Part shown: one piece after another, positions 682-53,991 of the stretch
Layout: each line of letters opens with the position of its first letter
Position numbering within the stretch: the stretch's first letter is position 1
Sequence record: MK562504.1
DNA length: 64,000 bases
Direction: 5' to 3' (one strand)
Origin: Enterobacteria phage CHB7
Notes under the pieces: model-generated
What the model was told of the DNA's origin: nothing
The model's input: only the letters and a program-made list of their open reading frames with translations
The model's database searches: none
Translations under genes and position numbers: made by a program

Positions 682-939
682 AATGCCCTCTTTTAAGTAT
701 CTATTAAACTTAATCTGTTTTCTTTACGTATTCTATACGTATAACTTTAAAGCTTCTTAAAAGCTATTAAAAATCTTTTAAGGGGTTTTAAAGAAACTGT
801 ATAGTTAATCTGTAAAGGGAGTCTTTTAAGTTAAAACCCACTTCGCAAAGATTAACACCTTGTCAAGTGAATTGTCAACTTGCTTTTTGAAACTTTTTGC
901 AGTAATGTATTGAGTCAATGATTTTGAGAGGGAGTAAAA

Positions 940-3639
940 ATGGAAAACGTAGATTTTGAAAACTTGCACTTGGTAGGTGATACCGAAACTGATGGGTTAC
1001 TCCTTGAGTTCACAAAAGCACACGTAATGGCATTTGCAGATTACAAAGATGACAGTGACGAACCTGCTGTGTGGGTCTTCACCGATGAACCTATTCTTGG
1101 TCACAAGTGTACCAAATACATCAAAGGTGGTCTTCGTGAAGGTGTAGAGTTTGCTCTTAAGGCAAAGCGTCTCTGCATTCATAACGGTCTGGGTTATGAC
1201 TGGTGGGTGTTCAATCACATTGCGCCGGACTTATGGAACTTTGACAATCCGAAGTGCAAACCTTGGGGAGACTTCTTTCAGGATTCTCTTATCCAGTCTC
1301 GTGTTCAGTGGATGGATAGACCTACACCGAAAGGTTACAAAGGTGCTCATGGTTTGGCTGCATGGGGTGCTCGTGTTGGTGTTCGTAAACCAGAGATTGA
1401 AGAGTGGGGCGTTTGGAATGCTGACATTCTGAACCGTGTTGTTGAGGATATTCGAATCAACGCCAAAACTAAACGTGCTCTTGATAACGAATACCTGAAG
1501 TTGAAGAAGTGTGGTGTAGACACTTACGAAACATACATGCGAGCTAAAGAAACATCTTTTTGGATGAGTCAGCAAGCTATCAACGGTTGGAAAGCTGATA
1601 TTGAACTTATGCAGTTCCATGTCAAAGAACTTGACAGAATGACTGATGAATTAGCTGCTGAAGTTGAGCCTCATCTACCACCGACTATTAAGACGAAAGG
1701 CAAAGTCACTGGCGAAGAGTTTGCAAAAGCTTGGAACGAGTATGTGGAGACATTTGGTGAAGCAGATGGTTTGAAGCGTATCACTAAGTATCCAAAAACC
1801 AAGTTCCGTCAGCAGGTTCGTAATGGTGAGATGCAGACTTACGCTATCAAACCTTTTGGTAAACCGACTACCAAGATTTTCAACATTGAGAAGCGTAACT
1901 GCTACACTCCAACTAACACGGTTACGGGAGAAGAGTACAAAGAAGGTTTTGTGGCAATGAAAGATGCTCGTGCAGTTTGTAACGAGTTGAATGCTGTGAT
2001 TGATAAGAAGTGTAAAGACTGGAAACCAGTTAAAACTGTGAAGACTGTGAAGTACTACAACAATCACGTAGTAAATCACTTTGAACTTGAGTCAAGCCGT
2101 TACACAGGTTTGATTGATGCGCCTTATACACCAATTGAGTTTGAAGTTTCACGCATGACTCAGGTTGCGGTTGTGAAGGATTATCTGAAAACTCTTGGCT
2201 GGATTCCTGATGACTGGAACTACAAGAAAGATTCTGATGGTCGTCCGGTGAAGGTTTGTCGCTTCAAAGACAACAAGAAGATGATTCGTAAACATCCGAA
2301 ATGGCAAGAGATGGTAGACCGTTGTGGGTTGAACTATGTTGAACATGAAGGTGTACAGTACATCGAACACAACTGGTCTGTGAAGAAGTACACAGATTTG
2401 CTTGAGCCTTGCTTGATTCGTACTTCACCGAAACTGACTGAATCATCTTACGATACGATTGAAGGGGAACTTGGACAGAAGATTGCGAAGTACTATACTT
2501 TGATGCACCGACGCAGAACTATCGAAAACTCAAAGGATGACGAAAAGGGTTGGTTAAACCAGATTCGTCCAGATGGTCGTTTGAGTGCTGGTGCAATGGT
2601 GTTTGGTACTTCAACTGGACGTATGACACAATATGGAATTGTGAACGTACCTTCTGGAGCTGCTGTTTACGGTGAACCGATGAGGGCAGTCTGGATTTGT
2701 GAAGAAGGAACAAACGTAGTTTCCGTTGATATGAACTCTGCACAGCTTGTTCTACTGTGTAACTTTATGGGTGATAAGGAGTTCACCAAAGCGGTAACTC
2801 AGGGTAAAGAAGAGATTGAGTTTATCCGTCAGGAAGACGGTAGATACTACTGTAAACACTTTGACGAATACCTGAATCCAGAAGTTGATAAGTATCTGCG
2901 TTACGACTCTGAAAATGACTTGTACGTAGTCTACTCAGGTACTGATGCTCATACACTGAACAGTATCTACTTCAGCTTGAACGAAGAACAAGATATCTTG
3001 ACTTGTCGTATGACTCAGGATGAAAATCTTCTTCACGAAATCAGTAAGGGTCGTAAGAAAGCTAAGAATGGTATCTATGCGTTACTGTTCGGTGCTGGTG
3101 ATGAGAAGTTTGCTAAGACGATTAAAGCTGCGACTACTCAGGAAGGTGCATTAACTAAACAGACTTACTTTGTGCGTTTGCCGAAGATTAAGAAACTGTT
3201 AGATGACTTGGAAGCTGACTTTAAAGCAACTAAGAAAGCACTCGAAGAAGTATTTGGTAAGACTGCTGCAATTGCTAAAGGTGGTTTTGTCAAGGTTGCT
3301 GGAGCATGGTTGTGGTGTAAGTCTCCACACAAACTGTTGAACTACTTGCTGATGGGTTCAGAGGCACAAGTTCAGAATGAAGCAATCAACCTTGCATGTC
3401 GTCGTATGATTGATGAAGGTTTGATGAAGTTGAACGGTCGTAAGCCAGCTATCGGTGCTCGTTTACTCTGTGCATATCACGATGAAACAAGTTGGGAATG
3501 TCCAGAGAGCATGACAGCAGAAGTTAAGGCTGTGACTGACTGGTACTACGGTCAAGCTTCTAAGAACTTAGGGCTTCGTAAAGAAACTCTGGTAACAGGG
3601 ACTGGTAAAGTTGGTAAGTCTTGGTATGAGGTGCATTGA
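940..3639 (+). CDS. DNA polymerase, family A (T7 gp5-like) with 3'-5' exonuclease domain
   Basis: 899 aa; exo motif DTETDGL near N-terminus; segments HNGLGYDW, AHGLAAWGARVG and APYTPIEF resemble T7 DNA polymerase; RBS GAGAGGGAG before ATG at 940. Confidence 0.9.
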   Translation: MENVDFENLHLVGDTETDGLLLEFTKAHVMAFADYKDDSDEPAVWVFTDEPILGHKCTKYIKGGLREGVEFALKAKRLCIHNGLGYDWWVFNHIAPDLWNFDNPKCKPWGDFFQDSLIQSRVQWMDRPTPKGYKGAHGLAAWGARVGVRKPEIEEWGVWNADILNRVVEDIRINAKTKRALDNEYLKLKKCGVDTYETYMRAKETSFWMSQQAINGWKADIELMQFHVKELDRMTDELAAEVEPHLPPTIKTKGKVTGEEFAKAWNEYVETFGEADGLKRITKYPKTKFRQQVRNGEMQTYAIKPFGKPTTKIFNIEKRNCYTPTNTVTGEEYKEGFVAMKDARAVCNELNAVIDKKCKDWKPVKTVKTVKYYNNHVVNHFELESSRYTGLIDAPYTPIEFEVSRMTQVAVVKDYLKTLGWIPDDWNYKKDSDGRPVKVCRFKDNKKMIRKHPKWQEMVDRCGLNYVEHEGVQYIEHNWSVKKYTDLLEPCLIRTSPKLTESSYDTIEGELGQKIAKYYTLMHRRRTIENSKDDEKGWLNQIRPDGRLSAGAMVFGTSTGRMTQYGIVNVPSGAAVYGEPMRAVWICEEGTNVVSVDMNSAQLVLLCNFMGDKEFTKAVTQGKEEIEFIRQEDGRYYCKHFDEYLNPEVDKYLRYDSENDLYVVYSGTDAHTLNSIYFSLNEEQDILTCRMTQDENLLHEISKGRKKAKNGIYALLFGAGDEKFAKTIKAATTQEGALTKQTYFVRLPKIKKLLDDLEADFKATKKALEEVFGKTAAIAKGGFVKVAGAWLWCKSPHKLLNYLLMGSEAQVQNEAINLACRRMIDEGLMKLNGRKPAIGARLLCAYHDETSWECPESMTAEVKAVTDWYYGQASKNLGLRKETLVTGTGKVGKSWYEVH

Positions 3640-4151
3640 TGCAAGATTGTGGTTTTACTCATGAGCAATTAAAATCATGGATTCACTACGACCCCTTAAC
3701 AGGGGTCTTAACTTGGATTGGTAGACCTCCTAACAGTGGTCGGGTGGTTATAGGCAGTCAAGCTGGGTCAATCAAAAGGACAAAATCTGGTGTGTATCTT
3801 CATACACAGATACTAGGTTACAGGACAGGGAATCACCGTATTGCTTGGTTCTGGATGACTGGAAAATGGCCTGATAAACATATTGACCATAAGGATGGAG
3901 ATGGTCTAAACAATGCTTGGGAGAATCTTAGAGAAGCCACGAAAGAGCAGAACATGGCTAACAGGAGACAACCTAGAACATCAAAGAGTTTAAAAGGCAC
4001 AAGTAGAAGCAAATCTGGAAAGTGGATTGCACAGATTAACCATAATGGAAAGACTAACCATATTGGCACATACATGACCGAGCAAGAAGCCCACGAAGCT
4101 TACTGTGAAGCTGCTATAAAACTCCACGGAGATTTTGCAAAACTTAGTTGA
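3639..4151 (+). CDS. HNH homing endonuclease with AP2-like DNA-binding domain
   Basis: IDHKDGDGLNNAWENLREATKEQN HNH core; C-terminal SGKWIAQINHNGKTNHIGTY AP2-like segment; ATG overlaps polymerase stop (TGATG). Confidence 0.8.
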   Translation: MQDCGFTHEQLKSWIHYDPLTGVLTWIGRPPNSGRVVIGSQAGSIKRTKSGVYLHTQILGYRTGNHRIAWFWMTGKWPDKHIDHKDGDGLNNAWENLREATKEQNMANRRQPRTSKSLKGTSRSKSGKWIAQINHNGKTNHIGTYMTEQEAHEAYCEAAIKLHGDFAKLS

Positions 4152-4176
4152 CAAGGTGCTCATGGAAGAGTACCTT
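4148..4176 (+). promoter_or_regulatory. candidate sigma70-like promoter (TTGACA-17-TACCTT)
   Basis: TTGACA at 4148-4153, weak -10 TACCTT at 4171-4176; upstream of 4204 ORF. Confidence 0.3.
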
Positions 4177-4203
4177 ATACTATATATTGTATAGGAGACT
4201 TGT

Positions 4204-4404
4204 ATGACTATTTCAGAAATTGAAGTTCAACTGCAATGTGCTGGATATTCTCAAAGTGAGATTGAGGCTATGTGCATCATCATTTGCAGTAGCCATAAGC
4301 ACCTCAAGCTTTCTAATGAAAATCTTTTCAAGGTTGATATTTTTATCGCTGGGGGCAAGATTATCAAGGATAAGACAGGCTACCTTAAAGGTGAACGTCT
4401 ATGA
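4204..4404 (+). CDS. hypothetical protein
   Basis: 66 aa ORF; RBS TAGGAGA upstream of ATG. Confidence 0.5.
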   Translation: MTISEIEVQLQCAGYSQSEIEAMCIIICSSHKHLKLSNENLFKVDIFIAGGKIIKDKTGYLKGERL

Positions 4405-4610
4405 GCCATCGTGGAAGAACTCATCTTGCCATGATGCAAGGGGCTTCAAAAGAGACTATCAAGAATCGGAAGAAAACTCTTTTTGACAGAATGAATAGAC
4501 TCATTGATAATGCAAGTCTACCTAACTCTGAAAAGGTTTTCTTGAAAGGGAATCTGAAGAGTATTGCACAGGAACTTATTGATATTGAACTTTGGAGACA
4601 CCAAAAATGA
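4401..4610 (+). CDS. hypothetical protein
   Basis: 69 aa ORF; start overlaps previous stop. Confidence 0.5.
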   Translation: MSHRGRTHLAMMQGASKETIKNRKKTLFDRMNRLIDNASLPNSEKVFLKGNLKSIAQELIDIELWRHQK

Positions 4611-4858
4611 GCAATAAAGAGCAAGAAGCTTTAGCAATCTTCAAGAGCGAAGACAAATCAATAGCTTTTGTCTCAGAGGCTTGGTGCAGAGATTTGGGGT
4701 ATGATTGGTATCTCTTCTTATGCGCTAAGAAAGATGTTAAGCCAGTTGATGAAACCCGATTCAAAGAACTGTATAATGTCTGCCAAGAGGGTTATGAAGA
4801 ACATTACAAAGGTTCTTTGAATCCTGTAAATTCAAAAGCTTCAGATTTATTTTATTGA
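4607..4858 (+). CDS. hypothetical protein
   Basis: ATG at 4607 overlaps preceding stop (ATGA); track ORF 4592-4858 trimmed to this ATG. Confidence 0.45.
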   Translation: MSNKEQEALAIFKSEDKSIAFVSEAWCRDLGYDWYLFLCAKKDVKPVDETRFKELYNVCQEGYEEHYKGSLNPVNSKASDLFY

Positions 4859-4868
4859 GAGGTTTAAA

Positions 4869-5114
4869 ATGTTAAAATTATTGATACCAGCTTTAGCAGT
4901 CCTACTGGTTGGGTGTAACCCTTCTTATGAGAATAAGGATGCTTCTTACAGACTTCCTCCAGAAATGCAAGACTGCAAGATTTATAAGCTTAATGGTGAT
5001 GCCATTAGCAGGGATGTTATTGTAGTTCGCTGCCCAAATTCTCAGACGACAACTTCTTACAAGTATGGGAAGAATAGTCAGTCACACGCCACAGTTTTTG
5101 ATGAGGGATATTGA
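4869..5114 (+). CDS. putative lipoprotein
   Basis: N-terminal MLKLLIPALAVLLVGC: signal peptide with lipobox LVGC. Confidence 0.5.
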   Translation: MLKLLIPALAVLLVGCNPSYENKDASYRLPPEMQDCKIYKLNGDAISRDVIVVRCPNSQTTTSYKYGKNSQSHATVFDEGY

Positions 5115-5115
5115 T

Positions 5116-5322
5116 ATGCAGGTTCTGGTAAACTTTATCTATAAGTATGAAAACATCTTCAGCACTATGACTGTAGCTCAACGCAATCCAGTTATTCCCC
5201 GAGAAGGGGAGACTGTTGAGATTAATGATTGGAACTACAGAGTTGAAGAGGTCAAGCATAAACTTAAAGATGGTTATGACCACCAAGTTGTAAATGTGTA
5301 TTTAAAAGGTAAGTGGCAATGA
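5116..5322 (+). CDS. hypothetical protein
   Basis: ATG at 5116 with GAGGGA RBS; track ORF 5065-5322 trimmed. Confidence 0.4.
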   Translation: MQVLVNFIYKYENIFSTMTVAQRNPVIPREGETVEINDWNYRVEEVKHKLKDGYDHQVVNVYLKGKWQ

Positions 5323-5561
5323 GTAGAGAAGACCAGTTAATTGATATGCAAAATGACAAAAATGAGGCAATATCCATAATCCCAATATTGTGGGGGCATG
5401 ACTGCACATATGGTAACTATCTGTGTGTTTGTGAAGACCGAAACATTGAACCCGTAAGCCGTGATGAGTATCAAAAACACTTAAAGGCTCTTGACAATTA
5501 CTTCACAGATAATAAATGCTCTCAGATTTCAAGTGAGGTCTTGCATGAAGATTTTTATTAA
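5319..5561 (+). CDS. hypothetical protein
   Basis: ATG at 5319 overlapping preceding stop; track ORF begins with GTG at 5313. Confidence 0.45.
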   Translation: MSREDQLIDMQNDKNEAISIIPILWGHDCTYGNYLCVCEDRNIEPVSRDEYQKHLKALDNYFTDNKCSQISSEVLHEDFY

Positions 5562-5642
5562 AGTTATTGATGAAGATTTTGGAGGGTGCTCTTGGCACTC
5601 ATTTTTCACAAAAGGTTGTCTAGCTTGTGAGGCACGTAATAA

Positions 5643-6746
5643 ATGACAATTCTGTACAAACAAAATAAAGATGGTTCTTTCAACGTCTGGTCATGCGTTG
5701 CTGTAGGTGACAAAGTGGTTACCACGTATGGCAAAGAAAATGGCAAGATGATGTTTGAAGAGTACACAGTAGAACCAAAAAACATCGGCAAAAAGAATGA
5801 GCGTAACGCTGAACAGCAAGCTCTCTTTGAAGTTGCTGCTAAATACAAGAAGCAGGTTGACCGTAAAGGCTATGCTTATTCAAAATCTGCTGCACAGGAA
5901 GTTGAGAAGGTTGGTGTACAGCTTGCACATGATGCTGCCAAGGTTAGTCATGCAAAGTATCTGAAGTTCCCTGCTGATGCTCAACCGAAACTTGATGGTG
6001 TTCGTTGCAGAATTTCTCGTCATCAGAGTATTGGTGGGACATTTACAGCTTATTCTCGTGAGAATACTGTTTACAATGTCCCTGAAGAGTTGATTCCAGA
6101 TTTACTCATGATGCTCAAACTCCATAAAGATGTTGATGAGTTTGACGGTGAGATTTATGCTCATGGTTGGGACTTGGAAGATATTGTATCAATGATTAAG
6201 AATGTTGACAATCCAGACCGTCACCTACTTAAATTCTACTGGTATGATATCTGTGATAATTCTAAAACTTGGCCTGAGCGTCGTGAAATAATTGATAACT
6301 CACCAATTGTTGAGCTAGGTGATGCTTGCAGGGTTGTACCTGTTCAAACTATCCGTGTTAACTCTTGGGAAGAGTTTGATAAAGCTCATGATAATTGGGT
6401 TAAGCTGAAGTTTGAAGGGGCAATGTACCGCTCCATTTCAGCAGACTCTTTCTATGAGTGTGGTCACCGTTCATACTTCCTAATTAAGCATAAGAAGATG
6501 CACACGGAAGAATTTAAAGTAACTGGTGTGAAGACTGATAAACGTGGTCATGGTAAGTTTGTTGTAGAGACACTTCCTAACGTCTTTGTTGATGTTTCAT
6601 GGAAAACTACCCATGAGAAGAAACAGTATCTTGCTGAACATCCTGAAGAATTTATCGGGAAACCTTTGACCGTTCAGTTCCAGAAGATGACTCGTAAGGG
6701 TTCTTTGCAGTTCCCTGTTGGTCTCGTTATACGAGATTATGAATAA
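5643..6746 (+). CDS. ATP-dependent DNA ligase
   Basis: Adenylation motif KxDGxR (PKLDGVRCRI); 367 aa. Confidence 0.8.
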   Translation: MTILYKQNKDGSFNVWSCVAVGDKVVTTYGKENGKMMFEEYTVEPKNIGKKNERNAEQQALFEVAAKYKKQVDRKGYAYSKSAAQEVEKVGVQLAHDAAKVSHAKYLKFPADAQPKLDGVRCRISRHQSIGGTFTAYSRENTVYNVPEELIPDLLMMLKLHKDVDEFDGEIYAHGWDLEDIVSMIKNVDNPDRHLLKFYWYDICDNSKTWPERREIIDNSPIVELGDACRVVPVQTIRVNSWEEFDKAHDNWVKLKFEGAMYRSISADSFYECGHRSYFLIKHKKMHTEEFKVTGVKTDKRGHGKFVVETLPNVFVDVSWKTTHEKKQYLAEHPEEFIGKPLTVQFQKMTRKGSLQFPVGLVIRDYE

Positions 6747-6752
6747 AATTTG

Positions 6753-6780
6753 TTGACATACCCTCTCCGGTAGTTATACT
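6753..6780 (+). promoter_or_regulatory. sigma70-like promoter TTGACA-16-TATACT
   Basis: TTGACA 6753-6758, TATACT 6775-6780; a 9 bp inverted repeat (TCCGGTAGT / ACTACCGGA) flanks the -10 and start region. Confidence 0.55.
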
Positions 6781-6830
6781 AGCAATATAAAATTTGATAT
6801 AGGAACTACCGGATGAGTTAGGAGAAGAAA

Positions 6831-7211
6831 ATGAAAAAGATTATGATAGGTGTCATTCTGGCAACTCTGAGTTTTGGTGCATCAGCTATGAAGATGCCTG
6901 AAGCAGACTTTAGCAAGGTCTCTATGGAGGCTTGTCAGATTGTTCGTAAAGTCGTAACAGATGCTGGAGAGTTGACTAAACCGTTATCTTCTCCAACCGT
7001 CATGGAAATGTCTGACCGTATCACTGATTACAATTATCGTGTGATGGCAGACTACTACGAAGCTGTTTCTGATGCTATGGTCACTCAGGATGTTGACTTG
7101 CTTGATGACAAAGACATTGAGAAGGTTGAAGATACTAAACGTGATATGATGGATGAAACGTTTAAAGGTGTTCATTACTTTGTTGAAAAGCGCACTTGTG
7201 TAGGTCTATGA
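6831..7211 (+). CDS. secreted/periplasmic hypothetical protein
   Basis: N-terminal MKKIMIGVILATLSFGASA signal-peptide-like; RBS AGGAGAAGAAA. Confidence 0.55.
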   Translation: MKKIMIGVILATLSFGASAMKMPEADFSKVSMEACQIVRKVVTDAGELTKPLSSPTVMEMSDRITDYNYRVMADYYEAVSDAMVTQDVDLLDDKDIEKVEDTKRDMMDETFKGVHYFVEKRTCVGL

Positions 7212-7212
7212 T

Positions 7213-7416
7213 ATGAAGAAGAATCGTTGCAGGAAGAACTATGGAGAAGTGCTTGACGACGAAGGTCATGTCATCTTCCGAGTTTACTGTGCAGATGACT
7301 CTGAAGTAGATAAAGCACTTGATGACTATATTAATGGTACTCGTGAAAACGTCAGAGCAACAAACATAGATTCATTGATTGACACTTCCAGAAAACGGAG
7401 GAAGAAAGATGAATGA
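7213..7416 (+). CDS. hypothetical protein
   Basis: 67 aa ORF with basic C-terminus. Confidence 0.45.
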   Translation: MKKNRCRKNYGEVLDDEGHVIFRVYCADDSEVDKALDDYINGTRENVRATNIDSLIDTSRKRRKKDE

Positions 7417-7708
7417 AGTCTTTGACCCTTACGCCCCACAAGATAAGTGGGAAGCTGATAGAGAGTATGAGATGGAAAGTTATATCTGTCCGATGGATGT
7501 AGACGAAATGAGAGAGTTCGTTGCATTCCGTTTTGAAAAAGAAATTGAGAAAAGAAAACTTTCTCAGGCACAAGTTGCAAAAATTTGTGATATCTCTCAA
7601 AGTCGTGTTTCCAACATTGTCAACGGTACTGGAAAGATTACCCTTGAATACATGTTGAAAGCTTGTGAAAAACTTGGTGTTAACTTCAACTTAAGGCTGT
7701 CGGATTAA
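7409..7708 (+). CDS. helix-turn-helix (XRE/Cro-like) DNA-binding protein
   Basis: C-terminal LSQAQVAKICDISQSRVSNIVNG HTH-like segment; ATG at 7409 with GGAGGAAG RBS. Confidence 0.55.
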   Translation: MNEVFDPYAPQDKWEADREYEMESYICPMDVDEMREFVAFRFEKEIEKRKLSQAQVAKICDISQSRVSNIVNGTGKITLEYMLKACEKLGVNFNLRLSD

Positions 7709-7709
7709 T

Positions 7710-8554: not shown

Positions 8555-8555
8555 C

Positions 8556-9882: not shown

Positions 9883-9883
9883 T

Positions 9884-10780: not shown

Positions 10781-10786
10781 TAGATA

Positions 10787-42659: not shown

Positions 42660-42833
42660 TCAGTCTCCTTCTAAGACTTCTTAAAAGGCTTTTAAGATAA
42701 GAGATAGATATCCAGAAAGATATCTGTTTAAATAGCCTTTTTAGAAGAGTCTTTTAAGTAATCTTCTAAGTGTTTTATTAGGCTACAGCTTGTCAAGTCA
42801 TTTGTCAACAACTTTTTTCAGTTGCAATAGTTC

Positions 42834-42862
42834 TTGACTTGTTGTATGGATTACTGTACCAT
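42834..42862 (+). promoter_or_regulatory. sigma70-like promoter TTGACT-17-TACCAT
   Basis: TTGACT 42834-42839, TACCAT 42857-42862; heads the plus-strand block starting at about 42908. Confidence 0.45.
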
Positions 42863-43868: not shown

Positions 43869-43913
43869 GTATTTCGGGGCGAAAGCCCCTTTTTAATTAT
43901 TTAAGGATAGATA

Positions 43914-45165: not shown

Positions 45166-45167
45166 TA

Positions 45168-45632: not shown

Positions 45633-45640
45633 TAGATTTA

Positions 45641-45668
45641 GAGGCTCCTTCGGGAGCCTTTTTTATTT
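45641..45668 (+). terminator. rho-independent terminator
   Basis: AGGCTCC-TTCG-GGAGCCT hairpin followed by TTTTTTATTT. Confidence 0.7.
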
Positions 45669-45670
45669 CT

Positions 45671-46762: not shown

Positions 46763-47099
46763 GTTACACGTTGTTGTTTACAAGAGCTTTGCGGATATGC
46801 AGAATGCTTTGACTTCACAAGTTGACAAGCACCGTTCAAGGCTCTTTATCATGTGTGATTTAGGAGATTACCAGCATCCTAAAGAGTTTAAATACAAAGA
46901 TGGTGTCAGAGTCTTACAGTTTGAGGATAGCGTAACAGTTTTCGTCAAGCATGACCTTCCAGCAAAACACATAGGCATGTTGGAGTACTACATTTACCGC
47001 CATACAAACATGCGTGGTGATAACATCAAGATTTCTTCTTTAGAGGTCTTTGAAACTCCTAACACACAACTTAAAAAATATTTAGTGAGGAAACTATAA
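46755..47099 (+). CDS. hypothetical protein
   Basis: ATG 46755 overlapping upstream stop; track ORF 46662-47099 trimmed. Confidence 0.45.
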   Translation: MTKLHVVVYKSFADMQNALTSQVDKHRSRLFIMCDLGDYQHPKEFKYKDGVRVLQFEDSVTVFVKHDLPAKHIGMLEYYIYRHTNMRGDNIKISSLEVFETPNTQLKKYLVRKL

Positions 47100-47689
47100 T
47101 GTCTGAAGAAGTAAAGCCAGAGAATCAAGAAGAGTTTATGCCACAAGTTACCCTTGTACAACACTTTGGTAACATTGAAGGTATTCTTGCAGCATTCCAA
47201 CCAACTGTTAACTCACCTGCAAAGGTTTGTACAGTGACGATGAACGTTAACAACATCTCTGCATGTGTTATCGAAGAAGTCCAGTACTTCAAGTATAACG
47301 ACAAAGAGGTTGATGCAGCACTTTTGAAGTATCGTGCAACCCTTGACAAAGATATTAACCATCGTGACGTAGTTTCACTGTTTGGTGACCTGCACAAGCT
47401 GCTTGAAAAGGTTCTGAAGCGTACATACTACATGAATAGTGGTGCAATTATCACTACGTACATCTCTCCTTGCATTACTGAACCAGTTTTGACAGATGAT
47501 GCACAGTTCTACGTGACTGCTGCTTCAAGCCCTGATTGGTGGATGAAAAACAATGCACTGAAGACTGTAGTTGAAGCTATTCGTGAGCATATTCCTGGGT
47601 TTAGCCCTTGGCGTGGTGCTAAAGATGACTTTATCTCTATGCTTGAGAACGAACGAAACAGGCGTAGTGCATTACTGCCTAAAAAATAA
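47099..47689 (+). CDS. hypothetical protein
   Basis: 196 aa ORF. Confidence 0.5.
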   Translation: MSEEVKPENQEEFMPQVTLVQHFGNIEGILAAFQPTVNSPAKVCTVTMNVNNISACVIEEVQYFKYNDKEVDAALLKYRATLDKDINHRDVVSLFGDLHKLLEKVLKRTYYMNSGAIITTYISPCITEPVLTDDAQFYVTAASSPDWWMKNNALKTVVEAIREHIPGFSPWRGAKDDFISMLENERNRRSALLPKK

Positions 47690-47767
47690 TCTTGACAGCA
47701 GTATACAGATTTCTATATGATGGGGCTACTCAAGGGTAGTCCCTTTTTCATATGCGAGGAAAGTAAA

Positions 47768-48454
47768 ATGAAAGTACAAAAAGGTGATGTAATAATTATC
47801 CATGTCACTAACAGACATAGATTTGCAATAGCTGGTGCTGACACAGTTCATGCAGATGTAACATTTGTCTCAGACACTGGAAGAGTATACTTTAAACCAA
47901 GAGCAAACATGAAATTCATGGTCAACAATGTTGAACAGAGGATTTACGCAGGTCAAGTTTACTCAACTGATGATTTTCACAGAGGTATGTTCACTGGAGC
48001 ATGGAAAGACGCTCTGATGCTAAATCTGAGTGTTGTGCAAGATAAGAAAATTGAAGACTCCAAAGATACAGGCAAAGCAGCTACATTAAGTGTTGAAGAC
48101 ATACCTAAGCATGACTACGGGGCAGCACGTTTCACAACTAAGGCAGATGATAATGATGAAGCTTCAGTAGTGGTTGACAAAGCTAAAGATTTCTTTAAAA
48201 CTTTCTCTTCAGGAAGCCAACATCACCACTATTTCAACCCTCAGACAAAACTTAACTCAATGCTGAAAAGTAAGTGTGAAGATGCTAAGAAGTTGGCTGA
48301 AGAGGTTTACGAGGCTTCTTGTGCAGCAAGTGAAGTGGTTGAAGAGAATCAGTTTGAAAGGGTAATTCGCATTATGATGAAAGCTGGTTTAACACCTTAT
48401 CAAATTGCTGAAGAGATTCAACGTCAGTTCTACAACGCTATGGTGAAAGAATGA
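47768..48454 (+). CDS. hypothetical protein
   Basis: ATG 47768 with GAGGAAA RBS; track ORF 47717-48454 trimmed. Confidence 0.5.
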   Translation: MKVQKGDVIIIHVTNRHRFAIAGADTVHADVTFVSDTGRVYFKPRANMKFMVNNVEQRIYAGQVYSTDDFHRGMFTGAWKDALMLNLSVVQDKKIEDSKDTGKAATLSVEDIPKHDYGAARFTTKADDNDEASVVVDKAKDFFKTFSSGSQHHHYFNPQTKLNSMLKSKCEDAKKLAEEVYEASCAASEVVEENQFERVIRIMMKAGLTPYQIAEEIQRQFYNAMVKE

Positions 48455-48672
48455 AAAAATTTACAACACTTGGTGAGTACTGGATGCTTGCTGCTACAGA
48501 ATCCTACAGGAAAGCCAAAAAGACTAAACAGTGTTATGGTAAGAAAGCGGAAGGTGATATTCTGTACTGCACTGTGCATGATGGGATGCCTCATGTTACA
48601 CCAAGAGGTAAAGCTTTCAAACGTCTGATGGATATTGAGTGGAATGCTCGTTTAGAGAGGGTAGTAAAATGA
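48451..48672 (+). CDS. hypothetical protein
   Basis: 73 aa ORF. Confidence 0.45.
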   Translation: MKKFTTLGEYWMLAATESYRKAKKTKQCYGKKAEGDILYCTVHDGMPHVTPRGKAFKRLMDIEWNARLERVVK

Positions 48673-49175
48673 TTTACGAAGATAGCCGTGATGTGATTTC
48701 TTTTCAGCAGTCTAACCATCATGTATCTCTGAAGATTACTAAGCCAAATGGTGAAGCAGGTGTTATCTCCCACTTCGGAGGTGATAATTGGTTTGGTACA
48801 GGGTGCTTTGAAGGTTACAGCAAAGAATATCTGAAAGCATTCTACCGAGATTTTATTAATGACTACAACGAACTTGTTCAAGCAAAGAACGATTGCACAA
48901 GCAGTGAGTATAAAGCCAGAGGTTGGGCTGGAACTATCCTGATGCTTGGCATTTTCCTTCTGATGATTTGTGTAATCTCCTTTATGGGTTTTTACAACCA
49001 AGAATTAACCCTTAATCAAACTGAGAAGAAACTTGGTGAACTCTGGTTCTTGTATGTACTTCCAATTGCTGGTATGATTGCTGCCTATTGGAGAATGAAG
49101 GTTCATAAGAAACGACTTGTGGACGCTGAGAATAAATTTGAAGAGGTAAGTAAAGAATGCAACCTAAGATTTTAG
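48669..49175 (+). CDS. membrane protein (two predicted TM helices)
   Basis: Hydrophobic segments GWAGTILMLGIFLLMICVISFMGFY and LWFLYVLPIAGMIAAYW; ATG 48669. Confidence 0.5.
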   Translation: MIYEDSRDVISFQQSNHHVSLKITKPNGEAGVISHFGGDNWFGTGCFEGYSKEYLKAFYRDFINDYNELVQAKNDCTSSEYKARGWAGTILMLGIFLLMICVISFMGFYNQELTLNQTEKKLGELWFLYVLPIAGMIAAYWRMKVHKKRLVDAENKFEEVSKECNLRF

Positions 49176-49249
49176 CTGTATGTATCCGTTATGCAATTGC
49201 TGATATGATTAATCAGGCAATCCTGAAAGACGCTTATAAGGAGTGATAA

Positions 49250-49477
49250 ATGATTATGACACCTACCCATCCATTCGGCTTTAGCTCTCTGAATGAACTG
49301 AAAGAGTACCTTGATAAGAACTACTACAATGAACAACCTGTAACGGTTCTTAAAGCTGACCTTTCAAAACTTCTGGACATTGCTATTGAAGCTACTGTAG
49401 AATCCAAACCAGAAGTTGAGAAGAAAGCTGAAAAGAATACGAAGAAGACTGAAAAGAAATCTGAGGATTCTGAGTAA
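49250..49477 (+). CDS. hypothetical protein
   Basis: 75 aa; RBS AAGGAG. Confidence 0.5.
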   Translation: MIMTPTHPFGFSSLNELKEYLDKNYYNEQPVTVLKADLSKLLDIAIEATVESKPEVEKKAEKNTKKTEKKSEDSE

Positions 49478-49529
49478 AATCTTGAAGGGGTTACTTGATA
49501 GCCCCTCTTAACCAAACAAGGTAGCGAAA

Positions 49530-49943
49530 ATGAAACATTTAGTTGGAAAAGTTCTGAATGTCAAACACATATTGACTGGCGAGCATATAACATCTGTCAA
49601 GGTTCAGAAAGTAAATGATGATGCTAACTACCCAATCTTCTGCACTGTCATTGAAGATTTCATGGTTGATGGTTTCCATTATGCAGAAGGTGAGTACTTG
49701 ACGTTTGATAAAGAAGGTAAGTGGCGTGGCAAAAACCATTCAGAGGTAAGTGATTTTGACATGGTTCTTGATATTACATCAGGTGATTCTAAGACTGTTG
49801 AAATTCTGATGAGTGATTATGAAGAACAAGTTATGAAGGTTGCTGTAGATGTTGATATGGCTGCTGAACTACTTGTACCACATCTGAAATCTGGTAAACT
49901 CTCTTTGGAAACTTTTGAGAAGATTGTTAAAGGTAAACTATGA
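49530..49943 (+). CDS. hypothetical protein
   Basis: 137 aa ORF. Confidence 0.5.
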   Translation: MKHLVGKVLNVKHILTGEHITSVKVQKVNDDANYPIFCTVIEDFMVDGFHYAEGEYLTFDKEGKWRGKNHSEVSDFDMVLDITSGDSKTVEILMSDYEEQVMKVAVDVDMAAELLVPHLKSGKLSLETFEKIVKGKL

Positions 49944-50404
49944 AACTTAAAGAAATCGTTCGTAAAGCAATGCTGGACAACTCCACCAAGGATGAGATGT
50001 ACAAAGAAATCTGTGATAAGTTGAACTGTTCAAGACATGCTGCAAAGGTTCTTGTATCAAGTTTTATCTGGGAGTGTTCAGAGGCTTACATGAACTATGT
50101 AGCTTTTGAAAGTTCTCACTTGACAGGTGACAAACAAGCTGGTGAAGATTTGAAAGAGCCAAAAGAGAAACCACCTGTGAAATTAGGTGATATCTACACG
50201 CTTAAAAATTTTCAGACTGGAATTGAGGTTGCCAGAGGTACTGTAGAGCACGTCTTCAAAGATGGTACTTACACTATTCAGATTTTTAAATACATCCCTG
50301 AATACACTCATCTTTGTGGGCTTACTTTCTTGGTAACAAGGGATGACTTTATCAGAAACAGTCCAAATAAATTCGCAGTACCACTTTATGAAGTAGTTCG
50401 GTGA
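49940..50404 (+). CDS. hypothetical protein
   Basis: 154 aa ORF. Confidence 0.5.
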   Translation: MKLKEIVRKAMLDNSTKDEMYKEICDKLNCSRHAAKVLVSSFIWECSEAYMNYVAFESSHLTGDKQAGEDLKEPKEKPPVKLGDIYTLKNFQTGIEVARGTVEHVFKDGTYTIQIFKYIPEYTHLCGLTFLVTRDDFIRNSPNKFAVPLYEVVR

Positions 50405-51021
50405 AGACTATGCTAATCACTGAACAGCATTGGGAAATGATAAAGTTTACTGTAAAGACACTGAAAGGGTTTGGTATGACTAAAGAATTTGAGTTAGAGA
50501 GAAAGTACTTGGTACTAAGTTTGGAAGATATTGACAACTATCTTTCACCGGAATGTAGAGACCAGCTTCAACAAATTGTAATGTCACTGAGACATTCAAG
50601 AGAGTTTGTAGATGGTAAAGAGCCACTAAAAGGTATCTTTGTTAAGGAGTCTTATCCGTTCTATAAAGACACTTTGCAGAAACTTGAAATGTATGTTAAA
50701 CAGCAGAACCGTAAAGAGTTCACTATGGTTTCTCTTGGTGGACAACAAATGCTTGTGATGGAAGATATCAACCCTAAACGAGTTAACAGAGGTGTTTGTA
50801 TCAAGGTCACAGGTAAAGAAGAGTTCATTGATGCTACGTACCTAAGCCACATCTTTGAAGGTGGAAGTGCAGTATTGAACCTGAATGAATATCACATCAG
50901 TTCACATCCAATTAAGGGTGACCAGATAATGCTTCAGGTAAGAGAACGTCACAATGGATTCACACACTTCTTCCAGACGACTAAGACCTCGTTGAGAGCA
51001 ATGCTCAAAGAAGTGATGTAA
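50401..51021 (+). CDS. hypothetical protein
   Basis: 206 aa ORF; last gene of plus block. Confidence 0.5.
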   Translation: MKTMLITEQHWEMIKFTVKTLKGFGMTKEFELERKYLVLSLEDIDNYLSPECRDQLQQIVMSLRHSREFVDGKEPLKGIFVKESYPFYKDTLQKLEMYVKQQNRKEFTMVSLGGQQMLVMEDINPKRVNRGVCIKVTGKEEFIDATYLSHIFEGGSAVLNLNEYHISSHPIKGDQIMLQVRERHNGFTHFFQTTKTSLRAMLKEVM

Positions 51022-51027: not shown

Positions 51028-51058
51028 ACAGCCCCTTTATTGGGGCTTTTTTATTTTC
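51028..51058 (+). terminator. rho-independent terminator
   Basis: AGCCCC-TTTATT-GGGGCT hairpin followed by TTTTTTATTTT. Confidence 0.7.
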
Positions 51059-51139
51059 TTATAAAATTTGGATTCACTCCGTTCATCTTGGGTCACCATA
51101 TCATGTGATAAAATATCTACCCTTCTTAGTAGCCTACTT

Positions 51140-51400
51140 AATCTTACTCTCTATATAGTTATATAGTACTATATAGTATCTTAGTCCCTTAGCAGTGAGT
51201 CTCTATAGCCCTCTGTATAACCCTTCTAAATAGCCCTCTATAAAGCCCTCTAATCAATCCTCTTCCAAACCTATACAATCACCTTAACCATCTCTTCATA
51301 GCCCCTTAGAAGCCCCTATACCCATCTTAATCTCTAGGTAAATGATAGTACCCTCTATAGGGTGTTCACTAGGTTCTACTAATCCTCTATATAGACTGTT
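51140..51400. repeat. cluster of short TATAG-containing repeats (CTCTATAG / CCCTCTATAA / TATATAGTA)
   Basis: Three tandem TATATAGTA units at 51150-51180; GAGTCTCTATAGCCC, CCCTCTATAAAGCCC, CCCTCTATAGGGTG, CCTCTATATAGACTG further on. Confidence 0.6.
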
Positions 51401-51699
51401 TTAGCTAACTAAACAGGTATCACCTTCTAAGGCTTATCCTACAAGGTCTAACACGGTACTAACAAGGTATCTTATAAGCCTGTATTTACCTGTTTTATAC
51501 AGAATACTATATAGATATTTATGCAATTCTTTAGTATTTCGTTTAGAAATATCTAAACTCATAAATTTTTATAAAATAGAACTGTCAAGTCACTTTTTAG
51601 GTGTTATGAAGGAACTCAAAAATATCTGTCTAGGATGTATATCTGCTTGGTAGCCCTTAACATCGCCCTTACAAGTCCTTTGCAAAATCTTAAAATATC

Positions 51700-52210
51700 A
51701 TTAACAATTTCTTAACAACTCTCTCAAGCTCTTAACATCTCTTCAGAGTTCTTAACAGATTCTTAACAGGACTAACAAGGGTGTAACAAGTTTCTAACAA
51801 GTGCTACATAGTCTTTACAGAATCTTAACAGATTGCTAACAAGTGCTAATTAGTTAATTTTAAAGGGTTATTTTGTTAAGATAATTAACAAGTTCCTAAC
51901 AAGTGTTTAACCTTTTTAACAAGCTGTTAACATGGTCACTATCTCTGGTCTTATCGTTCCCTTACCTTCTTAGTGATTCTCTAAACATCCTCTTAAAAGC
52001 TCTCTATAGCTCTATACAGCCTCTTTATAGCCCCTTGTAAGGTAACTATAGCCCAAGTAACTACAAAGGGTTTTATAGGGCTTTCTAGGGGCTTTAAAGG
52101 GTATGCCAAAGAGTCTAACAAGAGTTTAACAAGGTCTTAACAATGATTTAACATACCCCTAACAAGGGTAACTATGCAGGAGTTGTTAAGAATTTGTTAA
52201 GAAAATGTTA
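51700..52210. repeat. iteron-like array of more than 20 TAACA(A/G) words
   Basis: Direct copies at about 10-12 bp spacing over 51701-51924 (CTTAACA, CTAACAAG, GTAACAAG); second cluster 52105-52155; inverted copies (TTGTTAAG) 52173-52205. Confidence 0.7.
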
Positions 52211-52225
52211 AGGGGGCTAGCATAT

Positions 52226-52291
52226 ACGTAACTTTTAAGCCCCTTTTACGTAACTTCATAGCCCCTTTTACGTAACTTTTAAGCTACTTTT
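52226..52291. repeat. 3 x 22 bp tandem repeat (ACGTAACTTTTAAGCCCCTTTT family)
   Basis: Units 52226-52247, 52248-52269, 52270-52291 with 2-4 substitutions each. Confidence 0.7.
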
Positions 52292-52327
52292 AAGCCCCTA
52301 TAACATACTTTTTAGTGACTATCAATA

Positions 52328-52670
52328 GGATTCGATAGAGTCCTATCTTATAGGGGATTGTTTAGATATTCACAAGATACTAGCCAGCATATAAGCTTAT
52401 ACCCTTATAAGATTCTTTTAAGGCTCTAGGAAGCTCTATAAAGGGCTTTAAAGAGTGGGTTAATATGATTGGTTAAGTTGAGATGATAAGCCGTTATAGA
52501 GCGTTATAGAGCGTTTAAGGGATTGCCCTTCCCTTTCGGGTTATGGGCTTATATTTAAGGGATTGGTAACAATACCAATTAGTTGATTTGATAAGAGAAT
52601 ATAGAGTAAACTATAGAGTTATTGTTCTAAATGTCTGGAAAGGGATTGTATAAGGATTCGATAGAGTCCT
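52328..52670. repeat. dispersed 17 bp repeat GGATTCGATAGAGTCCT (2 copies)
   Basis: Copies at 52328-52344 and 52654-52670; near-palindromic core. Confidence 0.6.
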
Positions 52671-52684
52671 GTCTCATAGACGTT

Positions 52685-52707
52685 AAAAAGCCCCATTTAA
52701 GGGGCTG
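52685..52707 (-). terminator. rho-independent terminator ending the small-gene array
   Basis: Minus-sense AGCCCC-TTAAAT-GGGGCT followed by TTTTT. Confidence 0.6.
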
Positions 52708-52747
52708 TTAAGGTATCTGGGGCTATTTGCCCCGATGCGGCGTCTTA

Positions 52748-52999
52748 TTAGTCATTGAAGCCGTTTTTGTTGTAGTAAAGAGTGATAATAGAATCACCCC
52801 AATAGTAAGTTGTAACGCCGTATTTTAAGACTTCCTGTTTTGTTTCTTTCCAGAAATTTTCTGACGGTTGATAGTCCTGAATAGTTGCTTTCAGACACAT
52901 TTCAATCATTCCGAAAGCATCACCAGTGCCTACCATGTCAAATTTAACATCTAAAACGTGAAAACCAAAGTTGTTAACAGTTGCGCGGATAGTTGCCAT
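52748..52999 (-). CDS. array gene 1, hypothetical
   Basis: 83 aa; preceded by type A cassette (GNRA hairpin + GGAGA RBS). Confidence 0.5.
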   Translation of the reverse strand: MATIRATVNNFGFHVLDVKFDMVGTGDAFGMIEMCLKATIQDYQPSENFWKETKQEVLKYGVTTYYWGDSIITLYYNKNGFND

Positions 53000-53064
53000 T
53001 TTTAGAATCTCCAGTTTAGGATTTTTGTTTAGTGGGGAAGTTTCCCTCCCCGTTGATAAGTACT

Positions 53065-53592
53065 TTACAGACTTTCGATTAACTGGTCAAGCCCTTTTTG
53101 CATATCTTTTAAGGATTTTTCATGTAATTTTATCATGTCGTTGATTGCTTGCCCTAACTGAAGAGAATAATCACCGTCTTTTGTTTCACTTGTATAGATG
53201 TTCTCTACATCATACAGATTAAAAGGATTGCACCCTGTACCCATTGCCTGAGTCCCAAAAGCCAACGGCATGATATACAAATTAAGAGACTTTATAGAGC
53301 GCTCATAAGCCATTTTATAGCGGTTAATCTCTTCTTTTGATGACTTGATGCAATGCTCGTAAAGTTCTGCAACTATAGCCATAAAATCCGGTAAAATCAT
53401 TGCAACTGCTTTCATAAAATTGTTTGCTGTTACAAGTTTTACATTTGGGCGATGAATGTAATATTTTTTATCACTTCCCTTTGTGATGACTGCAAAGAGT
53501 TTAGCATTACAACGGAATTCGAAAGTGTCTTTTACTGGTTTGGTCATTACGTCTTTTGAGCGGATAGTGTTAATTGCAGTGAACTTATTCAT
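53065..53592 (-). CDS. array gene 2, hypothetical
   Basis: 175 aa; stop codon embedded in conserved GTAAAGTACTT word. Confidence 0.5.
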   Translation of the reverse strand: MNKFTAINTIRSKDVMTKPVKDTFEFRCNAKLFAVITKGSDKKYYIHRPNVKLVTANNFMKAVAMILPDFMAIVAELYEHCIKSSKEEINRYKMAYERSIKSLNLYIMPLAFGTQAMGTGCNPFNLYDVENIYTSETKDGDYSLQLGQAINDMIKLHEKSLKDMQKGLDQLIESL

Positions 53593-53596
53593 CTTG

Positions 53597-53692
53597 ATTC
53601 TCCAGTTTAGGATTTTTGTTTAATGGGGAAGTTTCCCTCCCCGTTGATAAGTACTTTACTTGTTTTGATTTGCCTTTGCAAGCTTTTTATTG
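53597..53692. repeat. about 95 bp near-identical dispersed repeat (type A cassette + flank), copy 1
   Basis: Near-identical to 57052-57147; includes the 3' end of array gene 3. Confidence 0.7.
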
Positions 53693-53793
53693 AAAAAATA
53701 ATCTTGAATCTCACTTGCTATCAGCAGACCAAAAGGAATAACCACTGATACAATCATGCCACACAGAATAGGGTTTTTAATTACTTCCATCAT
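53656..53793 (-). CDS. array gene 3, small membrane peptide (45 aa)
   Basis: ATG with cassette RBS; hydrophobic ILCGMIVSVVIPFGLLIA; below track length cut-off. Confidence 0.4.
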   Translation of the reverse strand: MMEVIKNPILCGMIVSVVIPFGLLIASEIQDYFFNKKLAKANQNK

Positions 53794-53991
53794 TTTAGAA
53801 TCTCCAGTTTAGGAAAGCGTTATTGCTTGAGATAAACTATATAGACTTTGATGAGTCATTGCAAGTAATTCTTAAGCTTATCTATAAAGAATCTTTTAAG
53901 TGATTCCTTTTAGATAAACCCCCTCGAACAAAGTTACCAATGTCAAGGGGTATTGTCAAGATAATTTTTAATGTTTTTTGTAAGTCATTGA

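Follow-up and report, generated by a model that had tools for sequence, protein, structure and literature searches.

The paired motif that recurs at three places in the 64,000-nt stretch of Enterobacteria phage CHB7 analysed here (MK562504.1; the window) probably forms the heart of three host-type (sigma-70) promoters, paralogues of one another, that fire on the minus strand. In each, a consensus −35 hexamer (the outer TTGACA), a 17–18 bp spacer and a weak TAnnnT −10 would launch minus-strand transcription, and a second, inner TTGACA is contained in the spacer. The presence of these modules, their non-randomness, geometry and strand logic, and their conservation among relatives are established below.

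Occurrence of the paired motif

The preliminary description had reported a TTGTCAAG…TTGTCAA repeat at three places, and this is borne out:

860–879, site 1: paired motif TTGTCAAGTGAATTGTCAAC, half-sites 12 bp apart (start to start)
42790–42809, site 2: paired motif TTGTCAAGTCATTTGTCAAC, half-sites 12 bp apart
53940–53960, site 3: paired motif aTGTCAAGGGGTATTGTCAAG, half-sites 13 bp apart

Its statement that each half-site contains TTGACA on the minus strand is equally correct, every copy at sites 1–3 being exact. The measured spacings are 12, 12 and 13 bp (11–12 bp in that description), and the N5 gap given in its title is slightly off, since half-sites of 8 nt leave N4 at sites 1 and 2 and N5 at site 3 alone. 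In the window, TGTCAAG-N4-TTGTCAA has exactly two perfect matches and the N5 form exactly one. The single word TTGTCAA is modestly enriched (38 seen, 22.5 ± 4.4 expected), and exact same-strand TTGACA pairs at offsets of 9–15 number three. In 100 simulations of the window with a second-order Markov model they averaged 0.16 and never exceeded 2, so the pair is clearly not random; as paralogues, the three sites are not independent observations. The closest relative has no extra intergenic copy of the pair in its 23 kb outside the window.

Sites 1 and 2 lie, as had been claimed, inside the two divergent intergenic regions (682–939 and 42660–42907). The term ‘operon boundaries’ suits these two but not site 3, which is flanked on both sides by minus-strand genes. 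The ‘related words’ near 57888, 58003 and 58067 are present, but as single minus-strand TTGACA hexamers in the early-gene block; at least one is followed by a near-consensus −10 (minus strand, 58009: TTGACA-N18-TATCAT). That other single TTGACA words of this block precede −10-like hexamers on their own strand favours the promoter reading.

Architecture of the leftward modules

Followed along the minus strand in the 5′ to 3′ direction, a module consists of one or two A-tracts, 3–5 nt, TTGACA, a spacer of 17–18 bp and TAnnnT. The outer TTGACA is the right-hand half-site of the preliminary description and the inner one the left-hand half-site, within the spacer at about −25 to −20.

Site 1 (divergent region 682–939)
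873..878, minus strand: outer TTGACA, proposed −35 of P-left(1), kept in 25 distinct Ounavirinae sequences
861..866, minus strand: inner TTGACA in the 18-bp spacer, at about −25 to −20; hexamer invariant
849..854, minus strand: proposed −10 TAATCT preceded by TGt (extended −10); TAGTCT in Mooglevirus
884–888 and 894–898, minus strand: two UP-element-like A5 tracts, 5 and 15 nt upstream of the −35; T5 run invariant
819..830, minus strand: downstream box CTTAAAAGACTC, 18 nt after the −10
880..908, plus strand: candidate promoter of the rightward DNA polymerase operon, TTGCTT-N17-TAATGT, back-to-back with P-left(1)

Site 2 (divergent region 42660–42907)
42803..42808, minus strand: outer TTGACA, proposed −35 of P-left(2), toward the DUF5681 gene, tRNA genes and structural block
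42791..42796, minus strand: inner TTGACA in the 17-bp spacer; hexamer invariant
42780..42785, minus strand: proposed −10 TAGCCT; TAGGCT, TAAGTT or TAGTGT in relatives, i.e. TAnnnT
42813..42818, minus strand: A6 tract, 4 nt upstream of the −35
42747..42758, minus strand: downstream box CTTAAAAGACTC, the exact 12-mer
42834..42862, plus strand: candidate rightward promoter TTGACT-N17-TACCAT, invariant in relatives

Site 3 (minus-strand early-gene block)
53954..53959, minus strand: outer TTGACA, proposed −35 of P-left(3), an annotated promoter in AYO145A and ASO1B
53941..53946, minus strand: inner TTGACA, offset 13
53931..53936, minus strand: proposed −10 TAACTT preceded by TGg; TAGATT or TACATT in relatives
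53965–53969 and 53974–53979, minus strand: two A-tracts upstream of the −35
53889..53900, minus strand: downstream box CTTAAAAGATTC, overlapping a predicted 5′ hairpin at its loop and 3′ arm

The outer hexamer matches the −35 consensus at 6/6 positions at all three sites and is invariant in relatives save for one TTGACT. The proposed −10 hexamers match TATAAT at only 3/6 positions, which explains why a promoter consensus scan calls none of the three leftward promoters; sites 1 and 3 carry the TGn of an extended −10. Nearly every module in the alignment has a tract of A5–6 that ends 3–5 nt before the −35, and sites 1 and 3 add another one in phase with it. These tracts appear UP-element-like, an UP element being an A/T-rich block with A-tracts at about −40 to −60. 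An exact CTTAAAAGAYTC box follows each promoter, and the exact 12-mer is restricted to the three modules. Minus-strand genes, with orthologues annotated in relatives, lie downstream of all three sites and start at 681, 42659 and 53793.

Promoter activity, the positions of the starts and whatever the inner hexamer may do are inferences. P-left(1) would start near 842 and head the unit from gene 259–681 onward, which in the closest relative runs on through primase/helicase and nucleotide-metabolism genes. P-left(2) would start near 42773, heading the DUF5681 gene, tRNA genes and structural block, and P-left(3) near 53924, heading the last small early genes. The implied 5′ leaders of about 110–160 nt are long, which counts against the promoter model, and at site 3 the scan finds a second, better-scoring promoter closer to the gene (TTGCAA-N17-TATAGT). 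A better −10-like word at site 2 (TAATAA, TATAAA or TATATT) was rejected, as it stands 22–23 bp from the outer and 10–12 bp from the inner hexamer, spacings that are unusable. A literature search for Ounavirinae transcriptomes or start-site maps found none.

The preliminary description had also offered ‘tandem −35 elements’ on the minus strand. This fits the evidence in that both half-sites are invariant as TTGACA with minus-strand genes downstream, but promoter geometry is confined to the outer copy: the inner hexamer has no −10 of its own in any lineage, the hexamers 16–19 bp downstream of it (AAGTGG, ACACTT, GGGGGT) not being −10-like, and a second promoter from it was rejected. A shared RNA hairpin with ACUUAAAAG in its loop was also considered and set aside. 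At site 3 the predicted hairpin convinces by its z of −3.4, yet its sequence is invariant, hairpin and box lying in a stretch of about 60 nt that is nearly unchanged between genera, and no common RNA structure is claimed because the orthologue differences at sites 1 and 2 are not compensatory.

It is very unlikely that the motif acts instead on the plus strand, as an activator site, UP-like element or tandem TTGTCA −35s for the DNA polymerase operon and the 42908–51021 block. TTGTCA does match the −35 consensus at 5/6 positions, all copies are oriented alike relative to the rightward blocks, the site 1 motif adjoins the conserved TTGCTT-N17-TAATGT, and at site 2 the scan calls TTGTCA-N18-AATAGT with an upstream TG. 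The rightward candidate at 880..908 is itself a weak match (6/12) that the scan does not call; its TTGCTT is invariant and its −10 is kept as TArkGT among relatives. At the position equivalent to 42834..42862 an Erwinia phage has TTGACT-N17-GAATAT. However, no gene or promoter on the plus strand follows site 3, neither half-site at sites 1 and 3 has a plus-strand −10 16–18 bp away, and the motif centre lies near −45 at site 1 but near −70 from TTGACT-N17-TACCAT at site 2. Plus-strand promoters from either half-site were rejected on these grounds, and the central base is always the one that gives TTGACA on the minus strand.

Conservation and the inner hexamer

The phage of the window is a Suspvirus (Ounavirinae, Felix O1-like). 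An anchored alignment brought together 17 modules from Suspvirus, Felixounavirus, Mooglevirus, a Hafnia phage and Kolesnikvirus. The distance from outer TTGACA to TAnnnT is 17–18 bp in 17/17, and −10 positions T1, A2 and T6 are invariant, positions 3–5 varying (TAATCT, TAGTCT, TAGCCT, TAGGCT, TAAGTT, TAGTGT, TAACTT, TACATT, TATTGT and TACTCT). The second TTGACA is found inside the spacer in 15/17; the other two modules, from Kolesnikvirus, carry one TTGACA. Kolesnikvirus site 1, a single TTGACA-N17-TACATT with unrelated spacers, presents a clean minus-strand footprint of a putative promoter. In the whole genome of AYO145A (Felixounavirus) three pairs occur against 0.10 expected, the only pairs there and at the window-equivalent sites, and the complete genome of Hafnia phage Zyzzx has two exact TTGACA pairs against 0.23 expected. 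An IMG/VR scan for TTGTCAAG-N4-TTGTCAA returned at least 120 contigs, mostly unrelated among the matches listed, and is uninformative because a pattern that fixes just fifteen bases is too short for a collection of that size.

In the footprints the hexamers are invariant and the bases between them are the region's most variable, although these intergenic regions are highly conserved throughout and footprints discriminate only so far. At site 1 the 4 nt separating the TTGACA copies show at least 8 different forms with the hexamer unchanged, and flanking bases, such as the ‘AG’ of TTGACAAG, differ among relatives. Such variability between and beside invariant hexamers suggests that whatever reads them is specific for the −35, host sigma-70 being the simplest candidate. 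The inner TTGACA appears to be under selection specifically as a −35-type hexamer. In the non-coding iterons at 51–52.7 kb the variable base follows lineage (TCTTAACA versus TCTTTACA), whereas the pairs keep G throughout, a difference that favours a reader held constant in evolution, for instance host sigma-70; for the same reason a common binder of pairs and iteron arrays was judged unlikely.

The plain promoter model gives no reason for keeping a second TTGACA in the spacer. Something with −35 specificity, most simply region 4 of sigma-70 in the host polymerase, may read the inner copy, which may then tune the three promoters by offering the polymerase an additional or rival place to dock; alternatively, its reader may be a conserved phage factor that occludes the promoter. 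We tentatively propose, as a possible but rather doubtful extension, that the inner TTGACA and the downstream CTTAAAAGAYTC box form a timing device for the three leftward Ounavirinae units. In one version a second docking site for sigma-70 region 4 would hold or reload host polymerase; in the other, a conserved phage factor of −35-like specificity would shut the leftward promoters and release the back-to-back polymerase promoter.

An operator, bound at both TTGACA copies by a phage DNA-binding protein (the helix-turn-helix (HTH) protein at 7409–7708, which is of XRE/HTH_3 type, or another early protein), would occlude the −35 and spacer of the leftward promoters and free the site 1 polymerase promoter in an early-to-middle switch. 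This reading we consider unlikely. It would account for a conserved pair of half-sites around a hypervariable gap, for an inner copy with no promoter role of its own and for an offset that depends on lineage (10–11 bp in the Hafnia phage and 12–13 bp in the Felix group; 10, 11, 12, 12 and 13 bp by module), as if co-evolving with its binder; the rightward operon encodes the HTH protein, and with the divergent −35 hexamers of site 1 only 1 bp apart, occupancy of one promoter could exclude the other. However, TTGACA alone is conserved: the palindromic extension CTTGnCAAG is not retained, the C…G flanks vary and the central base is always asymmetric. The offset differs by 1 bp inside one genome, the repeats are direct, whereas XRE/HTH_3-type proteins normally bind inverted repeats as dimers, and Kolesnikviruses retain the promoter with one hexamer. 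The HTH orthologue in AYO145A is 78% identical, and tblastn against the complete Zyzzx genome gave no credible homologue (sole match E = 7.2; a very divergent one could escape), which weakens the idea, as Zyzzx keeps pairs at two sites. The preliminary suggestion of an operator for the 7409–7708 protein in particular is therefore not upheld, given the direct repeats, the unkept palindrome, the 10–13 bp range of offsets and the lack of a detectable Zyzzx homologue.

That the pair binds an OmpR/PhoB-type response regulator of the host, which would couple phage transcription to host physiology, is highly improbable. The Pho box consists of 7-bp direct repeats with 11-bp periodicity that take the place of the −35 about 10 bp upstream of the −10; like the pair, it is a direct repeat with a TGTCA core (CTGTCAT-N4-CTGTCAT), the relative L134 has CTGTCAAG, and the Hafnia phage has a 10–11 bp periodicity. 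The window phage, however, has periods of 12, 12 and 13 bp rather than 11 bp and no plus-strand −10 about 10 bp downstream, and its hexamers are perfect for the −35 consensus but partial for a Pho half-site. The MotA box of T4-type middle promoters (TGCTTtA) is centred at −30, 11–13 bp upstream of TAnnnT; that class was rejected, the hexamers here being TTGACA and ending 17–18 and 4–7 bp from the −10. DnaA, FNR, CRP, IHF, Fis, LexA, sigma-32 and sigma-54 consensus sites do not fit.

Significance and relation to known systems

Judged from sequence, three related modules, conserved from Suspvirus to a Hafnia phage, are pinned down that probably launch the main leftward units, and the second −35 hexamer in the spacer is isolated as the one feature outside plain promoter logic. 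The elements belong to an ordinary kind, and the doubled −35 is an unusual feature of them. Salmonella typing and biocontrol make wide use of Felix O1-like phages. If the timing device is real, it would begin to answer how transcription is ordered in these phages, for which neither a polymerase nor a sigma factor of their own is known; should the inner hexamer prove to be without effect, the result simply refines the promoter annotation that already exists. We know of no described promoter class with a second perfect TTGACA conserved in the spacer, and no description of such a hexamer or class was found in the literature searched.

The sites have already been annotated in relatives as sigma-70-like promoters by independent annotators. 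Whichard et al. 2010 (PMC3185647) report the putative Felix O1 promoter ‘P41’, TTGACA(N15)TATAGG, between genes 40 and 41, where it faces gene 41; the same genome paper describes temporal regulation as unknown and, for one of the two divergent regions, reports that no promoters were obvious (PMC3185647). GenBank ‘promoter’ features in KR014248 (AYO145A) and MZ726792 (ASO1B) are at or overlap equivalent loci on the matching strand, and the intergenic region equivalent to site 2 holds both P41 and an AYO145A feature, each drawn on the strand that matches P-left(2). Like the window modules, these annotations take TTGACA as the −35, but they derive from pattern searches for TTGACA(N15–18)TATAAT, have inconsistent spans (27, 30 and 35–36 nt), and none notes the doubled hexamer, three-site recurrence, A-tracts, downstream box or cross-genus conservation.

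Strong sigma-70 promoters with UP elements include E. coli rrnB P1 and the early promoters of T5, T7 and T4. The modules described here share with them the TTGACA −35, 17–18 bp spacer, upstream A-tracts and a position heading transcription units, as well as the proposed use of unmodified host polymerase, but differ in their weak −10 (TAnnnT) and in a second TTGACA in the spacer 10–13 bp after the first. The activators lambda CII and P22 C1 recognise TTGC-N6-TTGC direct repeats, found at pRE, pI and paQ; the P22 C1 motif is mentioned in PMC4837284. These repeats are likewise direct and short, are spaced by roughly one turn of the helix and fall in the −35 region of a phage promoter with a poor −10. 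In the CII case, however, they lie on either side of a poor −35 and have an activator dedicated to them, whereas here each repeat is itself a consensus −35, with a period of 10–13 bp across lineages. Back-to-back divergent phage switches are exemplified by lambda PR/PRM and P2 Pe/Pc. Sites 1 and 2 likewise occupy short divergent control regions, and the 1 bp between the site 1 −35s implies that two polymerases should compete, as in such switch regions; unlike lambda and P2, the window phage is virulent and its site 3 is not divergent.

Paired TTGACA hexamers in the window and its relatives

The three sequences quoted in the preliminary description are present exactly as given at 860-879, 42790-42809 and 53940-53960 (sites 1, 2 and 3), and, read on the minus strand, all half-sites are perfect TTGACA hexamers. 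Their start-to-start distances are 12, 12 and 13 bp, respectively; the N5 gap assigned to the motif holds exactly for one match, but the exact N4 pattern accounts for two. Exact same-strand TTGACA pairs spaced 9-15 bp apart number three in the window; 100 second-order Markov simulations averaged 0.16 and never exceeded 2. No extra intergenic pair was found in the part of the closest relative beyond the window's extent (23 kb). The complete genome of the Felixounavirus relative AYO145A contains only three such pairs (0.10 expected), at positions equivalent to sites 1-3, and the distant Hafnia phage Zyzzx contains two (0.23 expected), at sites 1 and 2. The paired hexamer is real, non-random and old.

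The first 8 kb of the window are 96% identical to Escherichia phage mistaenkt (Ounavirinae, Suspvirus), and the genes follow the Felix O1 order in reversed orientation.

Gene layout of the window
259-681, minus strand: gene
940-10780, plus strand: block from DNA polymerase to thymidylate synthase
10820-42659, minus strand: block with tail, head and terminase genes and 24 tRNA genes
42908-51021, plus strand: gene block
After the plus-strand block 42908-51021: non-coding region of 1.7 kb
From 52748, minus strand: block of small early genes

Sites 1 and 2 lie within the window's two divergent intergenic regions, the counterparts of 96/97 and 40/41 in Felix O1, and site 3 is flanked by two minus-strand genes, with no plus-strand gene. 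Elsewhere in the window, an exact 127-bp tandem duplication (14335-14588) lies inside a minus-strand tail-region ORF (13856-14497 / 14448-15167). Among the database matches, GenBank entry OK283618 ('Listeria phage LPML1'; H140 and H243) is 92% identical to Hafnia-type Ounavirinae sequence over 1.4 kb, which suggests a mislabelled host or contamination.

Layout of the proposed promoter modules

Regions around sites 1 and 2 were retrieved from IMG/VR through their flanking genes, so that the motif played no part in the selection (25 and 15 distinct sequences, respectively), and site 3 was compared in five GenBank relatives. Both hexamers are invariant across all of these sequences, and variation in the region peaks in the bases that separate them, which take eight or more forms at site 1. 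Alignment of 17 modules, anchored on the outer hexamer (the right-hand half-site), reveals a common minus-strand order of an A4-6 tract (in nearly all), 3-4 nt, TTGACA, a spacer of 17-18 bp and TAnnnT, with a second TTGACA, the inner hexamer, inside the spacer in 15. TAnnnT keeps a constant distance from the outer hexamer, and its first, second and last bases (T, A and T) are invariant around variable middle positions, as would be expected for a -10 element. A TGn extended -10 is also present at sites 1 and 3. In the two Kolesnikviruses examined, site 1 has a single TTGACA-N17-TACATT with unrelated spacers, which reads as a clean promoter footprint on the minus strand. The genes downstream of all three window sites are likewise on the minus strand.

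The proposed -10 hexamers match the consensus at only three of six positions, and a consensus promoter scan calls none of these promoters. The leaders that they imply are long, and at site 3 a better promoter lies nearer the gene than the paired-hexamer promoter. Sites 1-3 are paralogues and hence not independent cases.

A plus-strand reading of the motif fails, as neither half-site has a usably spaced -10 at sites 1 and 3, and, measured from the candidate rightward promoters, which are conserved in their own right, the motif would sit at about -45 in one case and about -70 in the other.

Conserved candidate rightward promoters
880-908, plus strand: TTGCTT-N17-TAATGT
42834-42862, plus strand: TTGACT-N17-TACCAT

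Only 1 bp separates the -35 hexamers of the two divergent promoters proposed at site 1, and the A-tracts of the leftward promoter overlap the spacer of the rightward one, just upstream of its -10, so that the two promoters should compete.

The likeness among sites 1-3 spans ∼100 bp and includes a box 18-30 nt downstream of each proposed -10. Within the window, this exact 12-mer has no copies other than those that follow the three proposed paired-hexamer promoters; the Hafnia phage modules carry it too.

Copies of the downstream box CTTAAAAGAYTC
819-830, minus strand: exact 12-mer
42747-42758, minus strand: exact 12-mer
53889-53900, minus strand: exact 12-mer

A shorter word, CTTAAAAG, has a strong strand bias (19 minus versus 6 plus), with many copies intergenic. 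Across genera, the ∼160 bp between the proposed site 1 promoter and the gene at 259-681 (700-860) have changed less than the coding sequence beside them; they hold short palindromes (ACGTATTCTATACGT and AAGCTT) as well as several copies of CTTTTAAG/CTTAAAAG words. Situated between the polymerase operon and the one containing primase and helicase, this stretch may form a structured leader, bind a protein or be an origin-like region. In the site 3 leader, a stable 5' hairpin is predicted (53876-53921, minus strand; z = -3.4) within a ∼60-nt stretch with hardly any differences among Suspvirus, Felixounavirus and Mooglevirus, although the genes on either side have diverged. The ASO1B annotation calls this hairpin a terminator; no U-tract follows it. 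Differences between orthologues in the leaders of sites 1 and 2 include no compensatory ones, and a shared RNA structure is therefore not claimed.

The inner hexamer and its candidate readers

No -10-like word was found 16-19 bp downstream of the inner hexamer in any lineage. The offset between inner and outer copy is not fixed, measuring 12, 12 and 13 bp across the Felix, Moogle and Susp group but 10 and 11 bp in the two pairs of the Hafnia phage. Conservation of the half-site is limited to (C)TTGACA, and the following 'AG', which would complete a 9-bp palindrome, varies, indicating that the constraint is to be a -35 hexamer and not a symmetric operator. The pairs keep their G in all lineages, as expected of a fixed reader such as host sigma-70, whereas the variable base of the iterons at 51-52.7 kb differs from lineage to lineage, in the way that co-evolution with a phage protein would predict. 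The iteron TCTTAACA at 11-bp phase is common to the window phage, AYO145A and an Erwinia phage; that of Zyzzx is TCTTTACA at 10-bp phase, interspersed with opposite-strand TTGACA.

On the reading that we favour, the outer copy serves as the -35, with the inner one as an auxiliary docking site for sigma-70 region 4; we infer that such docking would modulate polymerase occupancy. Alternatively, a conserved phage factor may occlude the promoter. The operator proposed earlier for the protein encoded at 7409-7708 would be one such arrangement: this is an XRE/HTH_3 protein with a 78% identical orthologue in AYO145A. That proposal is weakened by the direct-repeat geometry of the hexamers and by the absence of a credible tblastn match in the complete genome of the Hafnia phage, which keeps the pairs, although a very divergent homologue could escape such a search.

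The iterons themselves, ∼25 in number and phased, occupy the 1.7-kb non-coding region between convergent blocks (51040-52750) and are densest at 51700-51935 and 52115-52215. In the window they read TCTTAACA(A/G) or CTAACAAG, at a spacing of 11 bp (or 20-22 bp), and are predominantly plus-strand, with three minus-strand copies; the region also contains CTATATAG-type words and three copies of TTTTACGTAAC. The mistaenkt record starts inside this region, which could be an origin, packaging site or terminus.

Other putative promoters and relation to previous annotation

The 'related' TTGTCAAG words of the preliminary description are indeed present at ∼57.9-58.1 kb, but they are single, unpaired -35 hexamers of putative minus-strand early promoters. 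Two early promoters (58009-57970 and 58073-58040, minus strand) share their first 11-12 nt with sites 2 and 1 (TTGACAAATGA..., TTGACAATTCAC...) and lack the inner hexamer, a likeness that suggests duplication of promoter modules within the genome. The interval 52989-58241 holds eight or more copies of a cassette with promoter and ribosome-binding site that precede small early genes (minus strand: TCCTAAACTGGAGATTCTAAAATG) and five copies of a 68-nt repeat with TTTACA-N17-TAAGAT; similar repeats have been reported for Felix O1 (PMC3185647).

The Hafnia phage contains more promoters in which two -35-like hexamers lie 10-13 bp from each other, e.g. TTTACA-N4-TTGACA-N8-TATAAT; in two of these, it is the inner copy whose distance from a -10 is correct. 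Doubled -35-like boxes may be a wider habit of the subfamily.

Further doubled promoters in the Hafnia phage
38684-38713 of its sequence L193 (Zyzzx record 81684-81713): doubled -35-like promoter
Zyzzx record 55796, minus strand: doubled -35-like promoter
Zyzzx record 56569: doubled -35-like promoter

Our literature search found no description of the conserved doubling of the -35 hexamer or its recurrence at exactly three sites, nor of the A-tracts, the downstream box or a conservation that reaches from Suspvirus as far as a Hafnia phage. The 2010 Felix O1 genome paper (PMC3185647) gives 'P41' as the sole convincing promoter in the 96/97 and 40/41 regions and describes temporal regulation as not understood. 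P41, in the 40/41 intergenic region, was placed on the strand matching the window's minus strand by simple pattern matching, as were the GenBank 'promoter' features of AYO145A and ASO1B at or overlapping the sites. Putative promoters at these positions are therefore not new, and the proposed paired-hexamer promoters are not a new class of element.
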